DNA of 64,000 nt, from NCBI GenBank assembly GCA_963782055.1, contig CAWAIF010000003.1, positions 480,001 to 544,000 on the forward strand, in the 5' to 3' direction. A program made the position numbers and the translations under genes. This document shows, in pieces, positions 1 to 8,113 of the stretch (position 1 is the first letter of the stretch; each line of letters starts with the position of its first letter). This stretch comes from an uncultured delta proteobacterium. Lineage in GTDB: Bacteria > Myxococcota_A > Polyangia > Polyangiales > Polyangiaceae. Under the pieces are notes generated by a model. The model saw nothing but the letters and a program-made list of their open reading frames with translations. It made no database searches and was not told where the DNA came from.

Positions 1-196
1 ATGTAGGACAACCTACAAGTGCACCTGCGTCGCGGGCGAGCCCCGCGCGAACGGTGTTTGCGATCCCCGAAGCCCAGTCCGGGTGGCACCTCGCGAAGGC
101 CCCATCGATCGTGATGTCGAGCGCTCCGCCCCCGTGGCGAGCAGGAGACCCGGTCGGTGCTCCATCGCAGGAGTTTAGGTCCCCGGAGTCTCGCAA

Positions 197-997
197 ATGT
201 TCACCAAGTTCGCCTCGGCTTGTCTCGTCGCCATCACCCTCGCCACCGCGTCCCTCACCGCCGCTTGCAGCGCGCCTGTCCAGGACGTCACCGCGGACGG
301 CGCCGACCAGATCGTCTCCCACAGCGCTCATTTCGAGACCTTCGTTGGCAAGGACGGTGACCACTACTTCTCCCTCGTCGCCGCCAACGGCCAGAACGTC
401 CTGCGCTCGGAGGGCTACACGAGCACCTCGGGCATGAAGAACGGGATGTCGTCGGTCGTGTCCAACGGCGTCGACATCACCAACTTCGACATTCGCGAGG
501 CCACCAACGGCGAGTGGTACTTCAACCTGAAGGCGCAGAACCACCGCGTCATCGGCACGAGCGAGACCTACTCCACCAAGTCCAACGCCACCCGCGGCGC
601 GAAGACGGTCGTCGCCCTCACGCTCCTCCTCGGCGCCACGCCCGAGGTCTCCGACGCCCTCCACCAGGAGCAGTTCGAGGTGTTCCGCGGCGAGGACAGG
701 AAGTTCTACTTCCACCTCCGCGCCGGCAACGGCGAGATCGTCCTCGCCTCGCAGGGCTACACCACCAAGCAGAGCGCCGAGAACGGCATCAGCTCGGTGG
801 AGACCAACGGCACGACGGACTCCCGCTACCAGGTGTTCGAGACCGGCGACGGCCAGTACGCCTTCCACCTCAAGGCGGGCAACGGCCGCATCATCGCGCG
901 CAGCGAGTCGTACGTGTCGGAGTCCAACGCGCAGCGCGGCGTCGGCGACTGCGCCAGCATCCTCGGCGACCGCGGCATCCCCGTCGTCACCAAGTGA
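197..997 (+). CDS. YegP/DUF1508-repeat lipoprotein (four repeats)
   Basis: Lipobox LTAA-C after a hydrophobic signal; four copies of the F-x(6)-G-x(2)-YFxL-x-AxNG-x(5)-SE/QGY-x(6)-NG-type DUF1508 pattern. Confidence 0.85.
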   Translation: MFTKFASACLVAITLATASLTAACSAPVQDVTADGADQIVSHSAHFETFVGKDGDHYFSLVAANGQNVLRSEGYTSTSGMKNGMSSVVSNGVDITNFDIREATNGEWYFNLKAQNHRVIGTSETYSTKSNATRGAKTVVALTLLLGATPEVSDALHQEQFEVFRGEDRKFYFHLRAGNGEIVLASQGYTTKQSAENGISSVETNGTTDSRYQVFETGDGQYAFHLKAGNGRIIARSESYVSESNAQRGVGDCASILGDRGIPVVTK

Positions 998-1123
998 CCT
1001 CGCGGGGCTCCCGCCCCGCCCGCGAAACGCCCGGCGGCGGTCCCTTGCGAGGGGCTGCCGCCGCGGTCATTTGGGGCCAGCGCCGGCGCGCGCCGGGCGG
1101 GCGAATGGAGTACAAGGAGCTTG

Positions 1124-3196
1124 ATGTTCGAGCTCGTGGGCACCTTCGCGCGGCCGCAGGTCTCCGCCTGGCCCTGGCTCCTGCCCGCGCTGCCCCTGCT
1201 CTTCGCACTGCTCGTGTGGCGCGCGCGCGTCGTGCCCTCCCGGCGGCTGTCCATCGCGGGGGCGCTGGCGCCCGTCGCCGCGGCCCTCGCGCTCGCGGGG
1301 CGGCTCGCCGCGTTCCCCGCCGACCGTCGCGTGCTCGTCCACCACCTCTGGCTCGCCGCGCGCGTGTCCATGCTCGACGTGTCCGTCGACGCGCGCCTGG
1401 ACCCGGCGGGCGTGGTGCTGGCCGCGGGCGCCGGCCTGGCGTGCGCGGCGTGGCTCCTGCGCGAGAGGGGCCAGGCCCGCCGCCGCCGTGCGCTGCTCGG
1501 CCTCGGGCTCCTGGGCTGCGCGGAGCTCGCCATCGTCGCCGACGGCTTCCCCCTGCTGGTGCTCGCGTGGGCCGGCGCCGCCGCGCTCGCGCTCACGCTG
1601 GGTCGGGCCCAGGCGCCCGCCTTCGTGGCCGATCGCGTCGCCGACGCGGCGCTGCTCTTCGGCGCCATCGCGCTCTTCTGGGTGCTGGGTGGCACCTTCA
1701 CCGCGCAGGGTTACGCGCCGGACCTGGACCCCCGCGTCGTGGCGGCGCGCGCCACGCCCACGCCGCCGCCCACCTTCTTCGATGATGACGACGACGACGA
1801 TCGCGAGGCGCTCCCGCCGCCGGTGACCGGCAACGCGCCGGCCACGCTGACGTTCGTCACCCTCCCCGGCGCCGACGTGGACATCGACGACGCGCGCGTC
1901 CCGCTGCGCGCGCCCTTCGCCGAGCACGCGCTCGCCGGCGGCCTCCACCGCGTACGCGTGCACCCGGGGCACGGCTCGGACGACTTCGTGCTCGACCGCT
2001 TCTACGTCGACGCCGGGGAGCACGCCGCGCTGACCATCCTCGGCTCCACGATGAGCTTCACCGCGCTCGACGCCCAGCTCGCGGCGCACGATCCCTCGGG
2101 CGAGGCGTTCGTCCGGCAGCGCCTCGCTGCCCGCACCCTGTTCGGCCTTCCGGCGGCGTGGCTCGCCGCGGCGATGGTGATCGTGGCCTTCGGCGCGCGC
2201 TCTCTGCGCGAGCGGCGGCCGGCGGTCGCCGGGCTCGCCGGGCTGGCGGCCGTCGCGGTGGTGCTGCGCGCGGCGCCGCTGTTCGCGATCACGCCGGGCT
2301 GGACGCCCGGCTTCGCCGCCGCCTTCGCGGTCCTCTCGGCGGGCGTGGCGACCTACGCGCTCCGGTTCGGCGGGGCCGGGCGCTGGGTCTCGGCGGAGAT
2401 GGCGTTCGCCGCCTTCGCGGTGGCGGTGGGCGCGCCCGCGGCCGGCGTGCTGCACGCTTCGCTCGTGGGGCTCGCGTCGACACGGCCCGCGCGCGTGCCG
2501 CTCGCCGTCTCGGTGGCGCTGTTCGGGACGCGCCTCGCCGCGCTGGAGGCGGCGTACACCCAGCGTGCCGGCGTGCTGCTGCTGGTGCTCGGCGCCGTCG
2601 CGCTGCTCGCGTGCACCGCCGCCGTGCATCGCGGCGCCTCGCGCTCGGCCCGCGTGCCTGCCGCGTGGGCCGTCGCCGTGCTGGGCCTCGGCCTGGGCCT
2701 GGGGCCCCACCTGATCGCCGGAGACGTGCCGTCCCTCATCCAGGCGTGGGTGCTGCCCACGCGCGGCGCCGCGCCGCTCGCCACCGCGCCGGCCGTCTTC
2801 GCGCGCGCCGCGATCGCCCTGCTCGTCGCCGGTCTCACCGCCCTGGCGGTGCGAGACGCCTCGCGCGCGGCGCGCAGCGGCGCCGTGACGGCGATGGCGT
2901 CGGCGGTGCGCGGCGCGCGCGTGTCGGTCCTCGCCGCCGGCGCGGCGGTGCGCTCGCTGGCCGGCGTCGCCGCCGAGCTGGACGAGCGCGTCGTCTCCGG
3001 TGCCGCCGGCGCCGCCGGGCTGCTCGGTCGGGCCGCCGGCTTCGCGCAGGCGTACGTCGACGAGACGCTCTTCGAGGCGCCGACCGAGCGCGTCGCGCGC
3101 GCCGCCGGCGTCGCCGTGGGGCGGGCCATGACGATGGTCCTCGCCGCTCTCTTCCTGCTCATGGCGTTCGCCGCCCTCGCCCCCCTCCTCGCATGA
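1124..3196 (+). CDS. Degenerate NuoL/MrpA-like membrane protein with inserted acidic/PEGA-like loop
   Basis: SD AAGGAG at 1114-1119; NuoL-like landmarks RLDP, IVADG...LAW and FVADRVAD (cf. FxxNRxGD); many TM segments; ATGA overlap with the next gene. Confidence 0.7.
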   Translation: MFELVGTFARPQVSAWPWLLPALPLLFALLVWRARVVPSRRLSIAGALAPVAAALALAGRLAAFPADRRVLVHHLWLAARVSMLDVSVDARLDPAGVVLAAGAGLACAAWLLRERGQARRRRALLGLGLLGCAELAIVADGFPLLVLAWAGAAALALTLGRAQAPAFVADRVADAALLFGAIALFWVLGGTFTAQGYAPDLDPRVVAARATPTPPPTFFDDDDDDDREALPPPVTGNAPATLTFVTLPGADVDIDDARVPLRAPFAEHALAGGLHRVRVHPGHGSDDFVLDRFYVDAGEHAALTILGSTMSFTALDAQLAAHDPSGEAFVRQRLAARTLFGLPAAWLAAAMVIVAFGARSLRERRPAVAGLAGLAAVAVVLRAAPLFAITPGWTPGFAAAFAVLSAGVATYALRFGGAGRWVSAEMAFAAFAVAVGAPAAGVLHASLVGLASTRPARVPLAVSVALFGTRLAALEAAYTQRAGVLLLVLGAVALLACTAAVHRGASRSARVPAAWAVAVLGLGLGLGPHLIAGDVPSLIQAWVLPTRGAAPLATAPAVFARAAIALLVAGLTALAVRDASRAARSGAVTAMASAVRGARVSVLAAGAAVRSLAGVAAELDERVVSGAAGAAGLLGRAAGFAQAYVDETLFEAPTERVARAAGVAVGRAMTMVLAALFLLMAFAALAPLLA

Positions 3197-5329
3197 CGCC
3201 CCTCCTCCGCCGACTGATGCTCGCGTTGCTGGCGCTCGTCGTCGGGGTGACGTGGGCGCCCGCGCGGGCCTGGGCGGGCGGCCGCATCCAGCTCGTCCCC
3301 GTCGGGCAGGCGCGCGGCCCGCTGGAGCTCACGCCGCACGCCGGCTCGCTGGCCGGCGACTTCCGCATCCGCAACGACGACGACGCGCCGCTCGTGGTCT
3401 CGCGCGTGGCGGTGCGCAGCGACGCCGAGGACGTGCGCGTGCCGTCGCGCGTGCTGGTGCACCTCGCCGGGGGAGGCGCCAGCGCCACGGTCCCCCCGCG
3501 CGGCGCGCTGGACGTGCACGTCACGTGGGCGCCGGCGCGCGGCAGGCCGGTGCGCAGCTTCTACGGAGAGGTGGTGGTCACCTCCAGCGACGAGCGCGCG
3601 GGGGAGGTGGCGATGGGCATCCACGGGCGGCTCCCCGGCCGGCTCGGCCGCCTCGGCGATCACCTCCTCTCGGTGATGCTCGCGCTCCCCGTCGGCGGGG
3701 CGCTGCTCCTGGCCATCGGCCTGCTCGCCGGCCTCGCCGGAGAGCGGGGGCGCTTCGCGCGGGCGGTGGCGCTCTCGGTGAGCCTGGCGGAGGCCGCGCT
3801 CGCGTGCGCCGCCTACGCCCTGTTCCACCCGGACCTGCTGCGCGCCGCCGGGACGGAGGGGCTGCAGCTCGTCGAGCACGGCGCGTGGATCCGCCCCCTC
3901 GGCGCGGAGTACTTCGTCGGCGTCGACGGCGGATTGCTGCTCGGCGTGGTGCTCCTCTGCGCGGTGGCGCCGTGCGCGGTCGTCGCCGCGTGGCGGGAGC
4001 AGCGGCAGCCCGCGGGCTTCTTCGCGCTCCTGCTCCTGGCGCTCGCCGCGCTGCTCGGCGCCACGGTCGCGCAGGACGCGCTCTTCTGGCTCACGTGCGT
4101 GGCGTCGGCGGTGCTCGCGCTGGTGCTGCTCGTCGGCGGGTGGGGCTCGGGGGACGCGCGGACCGCGGCGGGGCGGCTCCTGGTGTTCGGCGGGATCGCC
4201 GTGGTGTGCCTGACGGCGGGCGTCGCCCTGCTCCACGCCTTCTCCGACCGCACCTTCCTCGTCGACGGCACCACCGTCAGCCACACCTGGTCGATGCCCG
4301 ATTCTGATGCGCGTCGACTACGCGCGCAAGCCCGGTCACGTGCTGGGCGCGCCGGTGGTGAAGGTCGCCTTCGTGCTGACGTTCCTGGGTGGCTGGGTCC
4401 TGGGGGGCGGGTTCCCGGGGCATGCCTGGTTGCCGCGGACGCTGGCGTGCGCGCCGCCCGCCGCCGCGGCGCTGGTCGTCGCCGGCCTCCTGCGCGTCGC
4501 CGCGCTGGGGATGCTCCGCCTCGACCTGGACGTGCTGCCCAACGCGCTGCGCTGGGCGGCCCCGGCGCTGCTCGGCCTGGGCGCGGCGTCCGCCGCCTAC
4601 GCGTCACTCGCCGCGCTCGGGCAGAGGTCGCTCGTGCGGGTCGTGGCGTTCGCGCTGATCGCGCAGCAGGGCGTCGCGCTCATGGCGTTCGCCTCGCGTA
4701 CGCCGGAGGGGCTCGCCGGCTTCTACGGTCTGCTCTTCGGTGGGGGCGCCGCCGCGGCCGCGGCGGTCCTCGCGCTCGGCATGCTGGAGGCGCGCATCGG
4801 CGCGGTGGAGACCCGGGGGATCGCCGGGCTGGCACGCGACGCCGCGCTGCTCGCGGTCTTCGTAGGCGCCGCGCTCCTCGCGGTGGCGCAGGTCCCCGGT
4901 ACGACGGCCTTCTGGGGGCCGCTCCTCGCCGCGACAGGCGCCGCGCCGCGCGCGCCGGCGCTGACCCTCGTCGCCGGGGCCGCGTGGGTCCTCACCGCGT
5001 GCGCGCTGGTGCTCCCGCTGCTGCGCGTGCTGCGCGGCACCGTCCCCGCGGCGCTGCGCGAGAGCGCGCTGCTCGAGCCCTTCGGCGGCCTGGTGCCCGA
5101 GCTCTCCTCGCGGGAGGCCCTCGCCCTGGCGCCGCTGCTGCTGCTGGCGGTGGGGCTCGGCCTCTACCCGGCGCCGATGTTCGATGTCGCGGCGGGCGCG
5201 GTGCGCGATCACGTCGACCTGGTCGACACCGTGGGACCGGACCAGATCGCGCTGTCCTCCCACGCGCCCTTCGGCCCGCTGGCCGGTATGGGGCCGGTCA
5301 GCCCTTCAGAGCTTCCGCGCCGCCGATGA
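3193..5329 (+). pseudogene. NuoM-like membrane protein with N-terminal Ig-like domain; +1 frameshift at 4302-4303 (pseudogene or sequencing error)
   Basis: NuoM landmarks WIRPLGAEYFVGVDG, GGWG, FPGHAWLP, VPGTTAFWG and LSSRE...LGLYPAP; removing one T from GATTCTGATG joins the two frames as ...SMPDLMRVDY... Confidence 0.7.
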
Positions 5330-6209
5330 TCTCCATCAGCTCCTTGGTGATCGCCGCCTGACGCGCGCGGTTGTACTGGAGCGTCAGCCTGGCGATCATG
5401 TCCTTGGCGTTGCGCGTGGCGGCGTCCATCGCCGTCATCTGCGCGCCGAGGAAGCCGGCCTGACTCTCGAGCAGCGCGCGGTAGACGCTCATCTCCAGGT
5501 ACATGGGCAGCAAGCGGTCGAGCACCTTGCTCTTGTCCGGCTCGAAGATCAGCCCCTCCACCAGGGCGTCCTTCGGCTCGGCCGAAGAATCGGCGGCGAG
5601 GGGCAGGAGCTCGTCGTCGGTGGGCCGCTGCGTGATCGCGCTGCGGAACTCGCTGAAGATGAGGTGGATGGAGTCGAACTCGCCGGCGCGGTAGCGGTCG
5701 GTCAGCCAGATGGCCACCGTCCGCGCGAAGTCGGTCGAGATGTCCTCGTTGCCGCGCGCGAAGTGATGCACCACCGTCCCCTTGCGACGGGTGAGGTAGT
5801 CGCGTCCCTTGCGGCCGATGGTGGCGAAGAAGACGCTGCGCCCCTCCTCCTCCTTCTTCTTCCACGCCGCCTCGGCCATCTTGCCGATGTTGGTGTTGAA
5901 GGCGCCGCAGAGGCCGCGGTCGCTGGTCACCACCAGCAGCAGCACGCTCTTCTCCGGGCGGCGCACCAGCAGCGGGTGGATGTCCTGGGCCTCCTCCGCG
6001 CCGCTCTCCTCGCTCGTCGTCTCCTCGGTGATGGCCCAGGACACCGCGTGGACGGCCTCCCGCGTCTTCACCGCGTAGGGACGGAGCGCCGTGATGCGCT
6101 GCTGCGCGCGGTTGAGGCGCGCGCCAGCGACCATCTTCATGGCGCGGGTGATCTTCTGCGTCGACTTGACGCTGGCGATCCGCTTGCGAATGGTCTTGAG
6201 AGAAGGCAT
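5298..6209 (-). CDS. atpG: F1 ATP synthase gamma subunit
   Basis: KITRAMKMVA, SDRGLCGAFN and YNRARQAAITKELMEIIGGAEAL motifs. Confidence 0.98.
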   Translation of the reverse strand: MPSLKTIRKRIASVKSTQKITRAMKMVAGARLNRAQQRITALRPYAVKTREAVHAVSWAITEETTSEESGAEEAQDIHPLLVRRPEKSVLLLVVTSDRGLCGAFNTNIGKMAEAAWKKKEEEGRSVFFATIGRKGRDYLTRRKGTVVHHFARGNEDISTDFARTVAIWLTDRYRAGEFDSIHLIFSEFRSAITQRPTDDELLPLAADSSAEPKDALVEGLIFEPDKSKVLDRLLPMYLEMSVYRALLESQAGFLGAQMTAMDAATRNAKDMIARLTLQYNRARQAAITKELMEIIGGAEALKG

Positions 6210-6229
6210 CGGGGCTCCGGATCAGGCGG

Positions 6230-8113
<1,884 letters not shown>

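Follow-up and report, generated by a model that had tools for sequence, protein, structure and literature searches.

Complex I is among the most conserved enzymes, and the key residues of its antiporter-like subunit NuoL (E144, K229, H254, K342 and K399/D400; E. coli numbering here and below) have established roles in proton pumping. NuoL-like subunits are also found outside ordinary complex I, in the DAB/MpsAB carbon transporters and in cyanobacterial NdhF3/D3, which keep their transport residues and a catalytic partner. We know of no described bacterial complex I membrane arm that carries large periplasmic domains or that persists after the loss of pumping. Here we discuss a locus from an uncultured bacterium of the Polyangiaceae (assembly GCA_963782055.1, contig CAWAIF010000003.1), of which one stretch of 64,000 nucleotides, called the window in the following, was analysed: two adjacent genes in it, L' and M', together with a third gene just upstream of it, H', appear to be the degenerate remnant of the membrane arm of a second complex I, each of them carrying a periplasmic domain. 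In the family as a whole this domain-bearing arm is met either intact or reduced to three subunits, which points to a non-respiratory job on the periplasmic face. The parts of the three genes are listed below; positions without prefix refer to the window, those with a prefix to contig C3 of the host genome (G000) or to the fetched locus L031, and TM stands for transmembrane helix, GC3 for the GC content of third codon positions and Ig for immunoglobulin.

1124 to 3196, plus strand: L' (gene 1), degenerate protein of NuoL fold, 690 residues (alignment, predicted model)
1682 to 2143, plus strand: insert of L' between TM6 and TM7, presumably periplasmic by NuoL topology, with a conserved W..GG.W...Y.PD..PR motif, an acidic linker and a PEGA-like beta domain (predicted strands, ESM Atlas)
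2882 to 3106, plus strand: transverse (HL) helix, residues 587-661 of L', retained in eroded form (predicted model)
3193 to 5329, plus strand: M' (gene 2), degenerate NuoM-like protein, broken by +1 base in the assembly (profiles, alignment)
3193 to 3648, plus strand: signal peptide of M', with A-x-A at residues 26-28, and its periplasmic Ig-like domain at 3274-3648 (read from the sequence, weak Pfam matches)
4293 to 4301, plus strand: position of the +1 shift in M', at a GATTCTG motif (GC3 switch, profile matches)
G000:C3:476974-478677 (L031:6975-8678), plus strand: H', 567 residues, with a lipobox (Cys26), a beta-rich domain, a PDZ domain and a degenerate NuoH body (profile search)

By sequence, L' gave no Pfam or NCBIfam match, and a word-based protein search retrieved L' alone. 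Folded from its single sequence it yielded an unusable model (predicted local distance difference test, pLDDT, 44.8) and was therefore refolded with a 59-row alignment as input (pLDDT 84.6, predicted template-modelling score 0.83), among the rows of which are intact relatives that may bias the model toward the NuoL fold. A Foldseek search with this model placed NuoL chains at the top (E 2e-11), the best 39 rows being chains of the L/F/5 type as judged by name and length, and superposition on 4he8_L gave Z 27.2 and a root-mean-square deviation of 4.6 over 455 aligned residues. By its predicted fold L' is a NuoL/ND5 homologue, transverse helix and last TM included. M' is a NuoM/ND4 homologue by profile match, with 56.2 bits to PF00361 (cut-off 21.5) and 68 and 136.5 bits to TIGR01972 on its two halves, both below the cut-off of 263.8; the NuoH body of H' is matched by PF00146.

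Aligned with E. coli NuoL, L' has E144 replaced by A (1571), K229 by R (2198) and K399 by R (2531), further losses concern H254 (G), H338, K342 (S) and D400 (L), and R175 (1634), D178 (1643) and H334 are retained, the C-terminal positions coming from a gappy alignment. Within the genus, E144 of L' is gone and K229 is Arg in all seven members, with R175 and D178 kept. Compared with E. coli NuoM, M' reads A, L, H, L, R, R, Q, G and P at E144, K234, H241, H248, K265, R273, H322, H348 and E407 (E144 to A at 4102, K234 to L at 4400, K265 to R at 4493, E407 to P at 4919), so that H241 and R273 are retained, and five congeners agree with this pattern in kind. Judged from these residues, L' would fail as a working NuoL/ND5 pump subunit (E144, K229, H254, K342, K399/D400), and M' likewise as NuoM/ND4, with all seven residues tested (E144, K234, H248, K265, H322, H348, E407) replaced. 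H' keeps three of 20 key NuoH residues, a set chosen by hand with the help of the E. coli sequence, as opposed to 18-19 in five intact copies (H2), and it would hardly work as NuoH/ND1, since neither the TM1-2 quinone-entry segment nor the acidic TM5-6 loop is retained.

The initial annotation, which was made from the window alone, had read much of this correctly. The two genes are indeed translationally coupled, gene 1 (1124-3196, 690 residues) ending in an ATGA shared with the start of gene 2 at 3193, and proper E. coli alignments bear out its five motif readings, WAGAA (E144 to A) and GARSL (K229 to R) in L' and CVA (E144 to A), VLGGGFPGHAWLP (K234 to L, in the NuoM motif vKxPxxPxHxWLP) and LLR (K265 to R) in M'; a retention of the Glu and Lys residues, which it had named as an observation that would speak against it, was not seen. 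It overlooked, however, that gene 2 is not a single open frame: the coding frame shifts by +1 near 4295-4301, where GC3 switches and on either side of which the NCBIfam NuoM models match.

What these losses mean for pumping can be gauged from mutants of other systems, the residue numbers of which (Paracoccus, isolated modules) we take to map onto E. coli numbering. Neither pumping nor passive conduction by L'M' is to be expected, we infer, because equivalent substitutions cripple catalysis or block conduction elsewhere: the Paracoccus ND4 variants E141Q, K232Q, K263Q and E405Q are described as severely impaired in catalysis (PMC9802314), and K235M, E377Q and K385I as blocking conduction in isolated modules (PMC11496545). 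The key residues are lost in all 6-7 members of the genus and lost variously over 40 M loci.

The origin of the three genes became apparent from their relatives, which are Polyangiaceae. The host genome (97% complete) contains a complete canonical complex I, split over two loci, with single copies of each of NuoA, B, C, D, I, K and N and with the canonical open reading frame as the only NuoJ (J queries remained without a tblastn match); there is no complete second complex I in it, cognates of A, B, C, D, I, J, K and N not being found. Side features of the canonical enzyme were seen as well: among the canonical subunits of the host (G000:C3:3251634-3256417), NuoL is 956 residues long with a C-terminal extension past the last TM, NuoM begins with an additional membrane segment, and in two relatives the PF00146 match of the canonical NuoH is split after position 38 (G100:C64:48155-49705 and G067:C1:765021-766526). 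For a survey of M, 78 loci were fetched, 77 of which have M (most of 86 matches, plus congeners and genome G036); copies keeping all of E144, K234, K265 and E407 were called intact, those with at least one of them lost degenerate, and five truncated or gapped copies were left unscored. NuoN adjoins M in 30 of the 32 intact copies, the remaining two reaching a contig edge, whereas 38 of the 40 degenerate copies are without NuoN despite at least 1.5 kb of room, genomes G019 and G083 being the two that keep it. The operon of G100 reads H2-I2-J2-K2-L2-M2-N2. A second NuoD match is present in 30 of 31 intact genomes and belongs, in the ten loci inspected, to an A2B2C2D2 cluster without E, F or G; degenerate genomes have one NuoD in 36 of 48 cases, and in ten of the other twelve (all but G099 and G101) inspection assigned the additional NuoD to a third, separate clade. 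NuoF is present in one copy in three and in two copies in two of five intact genomes.

The ancestor was thus a second complex I, probably of 11 subunits, and L', M' and H' are the remnant of its membrane arm, which already bore the periplasmic domains: intact M, L and H carry the same domains as the degenerate copies, and because these fully charged relatives have them, the domains must be regarded as inherited rather than gained with residue loss. Many lineages have lost the matching NuoD and N as well as, from the locus, J, K and I, and only the three domain-bearing subunits remain. The proposal of added soluble domains in the initial annotation stands as far as their presence is concerned (the PEGA-like insert in L', the signal peptide and Ig-like domain on M'), not as regards their gain together with residue loss. 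In a similar way, its repurposed, non-pumping heterodimer survives as non-pumping and kept, on the grounds of residues, substitution rates, sidedness and fusions (see below), and not as an orphan: with a degenerate NuoH bearing lipoprotein and PDZ features at G000:C3:476974-478677, outside the window, the statement that no other nuo genes are nearby does not hold, and we are dealing with an H'-L'-M' remnant. The separate intact nuo operon it had advised to look for exists, namely the canonical enzyme in two loci, and an accessory complex I module is the less favoured option, erosion being strongest in the transverse helix and in the loops of the quinone site.

Intermediate states can also be found: G019 (locus L024; M with Q144 and T234) and G083 (L088) keep J, K and N with partial residue loss, and G101 (L086) has an M with E144, K234 and K265 and no N. 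A third contiguous nuoA-N operon without E, F and G, with a distinct NuoD clade, occurs in seven degenerate genomes (L149-L155), and split forms of that third NuoD clade in G127, G068 and G050. A second PF00420 match in two degenerate genomes (G107:C1:6488012, G131:C1:2421016) could be MrpC or a leftover K2.

Among 151 genomes of the family, the H fusion was found in 138, the L insert in 87 and the M Ig domain in 86. Among the matches listed for 301 phylum genomes, long ones to the periplasmic part of H are confined to the window's order, the PDZ half alone being found elsewhere. The reduced genome G048 (L078; a single contig of 1.8 Mb, 96% complete) has kept H' between a manC-like gene and atpG, and neither the L insert nor the M Ig domain was found in it. 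L' and M' form a single open frame in five genomes of four genera (L288:3084-6527 in G157, and L131, L132, L136 and L029), with 117-397 residues between insert and Ig domain and a signal-peptide-like stretch left at the junction. Six more genomes have an L' without most of its C-terminal half (frames of 407-599 codons, possibly assembly errors), and the insert is retained in every fused or shortened L'. In G059 and G157 the L and M parts are located away from the H' locus. On an RpoB tree of 77 genomes the labels intact and degenerate require four changes, at least three of them forced by starred branches, and a single degenerate clade is rejected (p-AU, from the approximately unbiased test, 1.7e-05; five rows left out). 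In a tree from periplasmic columns only (68 rows), six degenerate copies fall within the intact ones with a support of 98, and these six share the gene neighbourhood of their intact relatives, minus N. Degeneration therefore arose at least twice, possibly three or four times; three to four independent degenerations, as suggested by the RpoB tree alone, were cut back to at least two after the gene trees.

Ratios of non-synonymous to synonymous substitution rates (dN/dS; simple NG86 method) range from 0.03 to 0.80 over all regions in 13 degenerate pairs of relatives. In the TM part of M they are 0.10-0.53 in degenerate as opposed to 0.03-0.20 in six intact pairs, and hence relaxed, whereas in its Ig domain they are unchanged (0.13-0.49 versus 0.10-0.48). 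More telling is the sidedness of conservation. Of the positions conserved in intact copies, degenerate copies retain 0.61 (M), 0.49 (L) and 0.48 (H) in periplasmic loops, 0.36, 0.24 and 0.32 in mid-membrane, and 0.32, 0.15 and 0.17 in cytoplasmic loops (pooled set without G019, G083 and G022; five intact H copies only), the periplasmic value exceeding the cytoplasmic one in each of four lineages (for H, three). The canonical paralogues of the host gave periplasmic/cytoplasmic values of 0.39/0.60 (M), 0.48/0.70 (L) and 0.42/0.62 (H), and E. coli L gave 0.47/0.46; the periplasmic bias is thus not a trait of working paralogues, and a permutation test of it, matched by residue type, came out at 0 of 5000. 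The window genome itself keeps 30 of 66 periplasmic versus 11 of 105 cytoplasmic positions in L', 23 of 53 versus 7 of 104 in H' and 41 of 75 versus 30 of 88 in M'. Because of the residue losses, the dN/dS below 1 in all 13 degenerate pairs, the one-sided periplasmic conservation and the L'-M' fusions, the comparisons support the view that L'M' is a non-pumping, repurposed pair kept by selection; neutral decay in homologues, which the initial annotation had considered as the other outcome, is not what was found.

Part of the evidence weighs against this view and should be named. About 43% of the family genomes gave no match to the L insert and the M Ig domain, which makes L'M' dispensable. In the tree of full-length M (71 rows; nine were left out) all 39 degenerate copies come out together with a support of 100, albeit with long-branch and composition warnings, and this makes the number of independent origins less certain. 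Comparing the window genes with two congeners, dN/dS is 0.52-1.02, which shows no visible constraint; with a GC content of 72%, dS of these comparisons is probably saturated. The loop boundaries behind the sidedness values were set by hand from the topology of the subunits, and genomes and columns are not independent of one another, so that p-values are overstated. Of 43 M copies, 32 still have H241 and 40 still have R273, and in isolated modules passive conduction is reported to increase when the TM5 Glu alone is lost (PMC11496545). Finally, M' is broken in this assembly.

This break is very likely a motif-specific assembly error, because the GATTCTG motif at which it lies shifts the frame far above controls: on contig C3, a +1 shift is seen at 23 of 41 testable GATTCTG/CAGAATC sites, at 15 of 42 GATTCT and 22 of 63 AGAATC testable sites (for example at 2432874), compared with about 1% for the control motifs GATC, GATCTG, GACTC and GATAC. 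A frame check of 57 genes (63.5 kb), for which 189 of 787 relative frames were used, flagged two sites, one a gene boundary and the other a true shift at GATTCTG. M' is a single open frame in all five congeners with a covering contig, and GC3 of L' is 0.92-0.98 along the entire gene. That the shifts are methylation-linked long-read errors is a guess. Other 'broken genes' in this assembly deserve a check for motifs of the GATTCT type.

We lean towards a reading in which L'M' and H' would form a non-pumping inner-membrane scaffold that holds the PEGA-like, Ig-like and PDZ domains in the periplasm. L' and M' would lie next to each other in the arrangement known from complex I, the N-terminal half of L' facing M', which would put the L' insert beside the periplasmic loops of M'; the membrane helices would serve as anchors and spacers alone, and the Lys to Arg changes may preserve buried salt bridges through which no proton exchange is possible. 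The core would be formed by H', which has a lipid-anchored domain and a PDZ domain of DegP type that would bind a peptide tail on some partner in the envelope or in respiration; L'M' would be an accessory part dropped in some lineages. With N, J, K and A gone, any contact from H' to L'M' would have to run via the periplasmic domains. More tentatively, and with somewhat less than an even chance, the second complex I may have carried a periplasmic platform that outranked pumping, several lineages then shedding the redox engine to leave a pseudo-complex I, a lipid-tethered PDZ/Ig/PEGA scaffold with an envelope-level job. If so, the platform core would be important enough to survive in a 1.8 Mb genome, and the intact form would couple respiration or the proton-motive force to a periplasmic process.

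Other explanations have to be weighed against the scaffold. H' might alone have a periplasmic function, L'M' being kept just for the folding or stability of H' or of another membrane protein and shed once bypassed. The wider occurrence of the H fusion (138 of 151 genomes, 86-87 for M and L), the progressive shortening of L' and the fast evolution of its C-terminal half (dN/dS 0.31-0.80, the fastest) fit such a dependency, which we nevertheless consider unlikely, since one clade has L'M' at a locus apart from H' and still keeps it with the same periplasmic bias, and the periplasmic face of M' is as conserved as that of H'. It is more doubtful still that the genes are slowly decaying neutral relics and the frameshift of M' a real inactivating mutation, as the broken frame, the identity to congeners of 29-51% with dN/dS up to 1.0 and the apparent repeated loss of L'M' could suggest: the preservation of one membrane face is not what neutral decay would leave behind, all 13 degenerate pairs have a dN/dS below 1, split M frames were flagged in only two of 40 degenerate loci of other genomes (G145, and G022, which is actually one fused frame), GC3 of the coding frame stays at 0.92-1.0 along both genes except in the bin with the break, and the break sits at an error-prone motif. 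At the family level, where pseudogene features were not found, this explanation is largely refuted.

Two further proposals appear very improbable to us, and about equally so. L'M' (and H') could swap into the canonical complex I, lowering its H+/e- ratio or inhibiting it, and the presence of that enzyme as well as the whole NuoL fold retained by L', including transverse helix and last TM, would allow for this. The transverse helix together with TM16 forms the clamp onto NuoN, and its conserved columns number 0 of 105 in 36 degenerate L copies versus 46 of 105 in 33 intact ones; the loops of H' that bind the quinone module are lost (three of 20 residues and 7 of 104 cytoplasmic positions are left), fused and shortened L' are without a large part of the C-terminal half, and ND4 axis mutants are reported to slow catalysis without uncoupling (PMC9802314). 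In the alignment the helix is 8-15 residues shorter and unconserved; a shortened transverse helix as a sign of a two-subunit module was dropped, the region being unconserved. Alternatively, L'M' could let some other ion or solute pass or transmit a signal across the membrane upon binding in the periplasm, and recurrent residues (of 38 L copies, 22 with Arg at position 229, 29 with R175 and 28 with D178, besides M H241 and M R273 in the frequencies given above) and an M' membrane body that is nearly whole even in fusions argue in this direction. Mid-membrane retention is low (0.24-0.36), however, substitutions vary among lineages, and no conserved cytoplasmic surface for passing on a signal is seen.

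The PDZ domain of H' is matched by PF17820 with 33.4 bits (cut-off 27), a PDZ match is obtained in 54 of 54 H members (E 0.05), and its best PDB sequence matches are DegP/DegQ. Pfam covers the PDZ half of the periplasmic part of H' alone, and the ESM Atlas gave no usable match for that part; its first half we take to be Ig/IPT-like by motif resemblance. For the L' insert the top ESM Atlas matches are PEGA at 0.90, to be read as a lead only, and Pfam PEGA matches the L insert in just one of 62 members; the whole-model fold searches of L' say nothing on the insert alone. The M Ig domain has weak Pfam matches among 78 members (DUF4232 in 29, DUF1573 in 20, HYDIN-like in 18, ASH in 11), and a PDB sequence search with the L insert and M Ig profiles returned weak leads only (6xi1, E 8e-05; designed Ig proteins). 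Past the last TM of M, a V.P.GP.QI-like motif (5216-5248) is shared by several intact and degenerate copies and is a candidate ligand of a periplasmic domain.

H' ends 1.3 kb before base 1 of the window, 2.4 kb upstream of L', and the order in congeners, as far as contigs reach, is manC-like gene, H', small gene, L', M' and convergent atpG. The neighbours in the host genome are as follows.

L031:8728-9480 (about G000:C3:478727-479479), plus strand: small membrane protein between H' and L', no Pfam match, membership uncertain
197 to 997, plus strand: DUF1508 protein between H' with the small gene and L' (Pfam)
5298 to 6209, minus strand: atpG, convergent, overlapping the 3' end of M' by 32 bases; a neighbour in one large clade only

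The DUF1508 gene was not seen between these genes in any of the six listed congener loci and probably stands outside the system. Positions 1-6300 of the window gave no sigma-70 promoter and no excess of terminators. Near the locus, AtpA (6230-8113, 627 residues) is extended by a long charged insertion within the nucleotide-binding domain and by a C-terminal tail rich in Lys, and a small gene, presumably PilZ-like by motif, lies 3' of M' or N2 in six loci (L024, L073, L074, L117, L143, L144).

Taken together, the family offers a natural series from pump to dead scaffold, with G100 intact, G019, G083 and G101 intermediate, the genus of the window eroded, then the fusions and finally H' alone. 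It should also be noted that 117 of 120 proteins scored have at most 14 of the 20 key NuoH residues, although the source name of many among the 120 is 'NADH-quinone oxidoreductase subunit H', so caution is needed when functions are taken from such names. Two degenerate H' with 5 of 20 key residues are named as from Pendulispora species (P0037, P0044); Pendulispora species are cultured, which would make experimental tests possible.

Elsewhere in the host genome, a DAB/MpsAB-like cluster (G000:C3:4347715-4353034) has two PF00361 genes beside a 947-residue protein which we take to resemble DUF2309/DabA. In the literature searched, with supplements (those of PMC4758237, PMC4453560 and PMC3144371 may list it) and most subscription papers outside its scope, we found no account of a domain-bearing second complex I or of its remnants. 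Compared with NuoL/Nqo12, NuoM/Nqo13 and NuoH/Nqo8 of complex I (E. coli 3rko and 7p69; T. thermophilus 4he8), the likeness lies in the predicted fold of L', the NuoM profiles of M', PF00146 in H' and the order H..L-M; unlike them, the trio is without the charged axis, the quinone-site loops, adjoining N, J, K and I and matching A-D, and has PEGA-like, Ig-like and lipoprotein-PDZ domains. With A2B2C2D2 and H2-I2-J2-K2-L2-M2-N2, and with a single NuoF in three of five intact genomes, the intact ancestor comes near the 11-subunit complex I without NuoEFG, the accessible part of the description of which (PMC3144371) has no mention of periplasmic domains on H, L or M or of remnants, and the window genes differ in being a remnant, not an enzyme. 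With MrpA/MrpD of Mrp antiporters L' has the antiporter-like fold in common (7qru_A, Z 23.7; 6z16_d, Z 22.0), but NuoM models outscore MrpD models, the charged residues are lost in the window genes and none of mrpB-G was recognised at the locus; an identity as Mrp antiporter was rejected, there being no mrpA-G operon and descent from a nuo operon being shown by G100. By homology the trio is NuoL, NuoM and NuoH, yet by the defining residues its proteins are not working members of complex I, and they are not Mrp. The literature searched on pseudoenzymes gave no case from a complex I membrane arm; in concept, the trio resembles those pseudoenzymes and pseudo-subunits that act as scaffolds or regulators, their catalytic residues lost, their fold and binding surfaces kept under selection.

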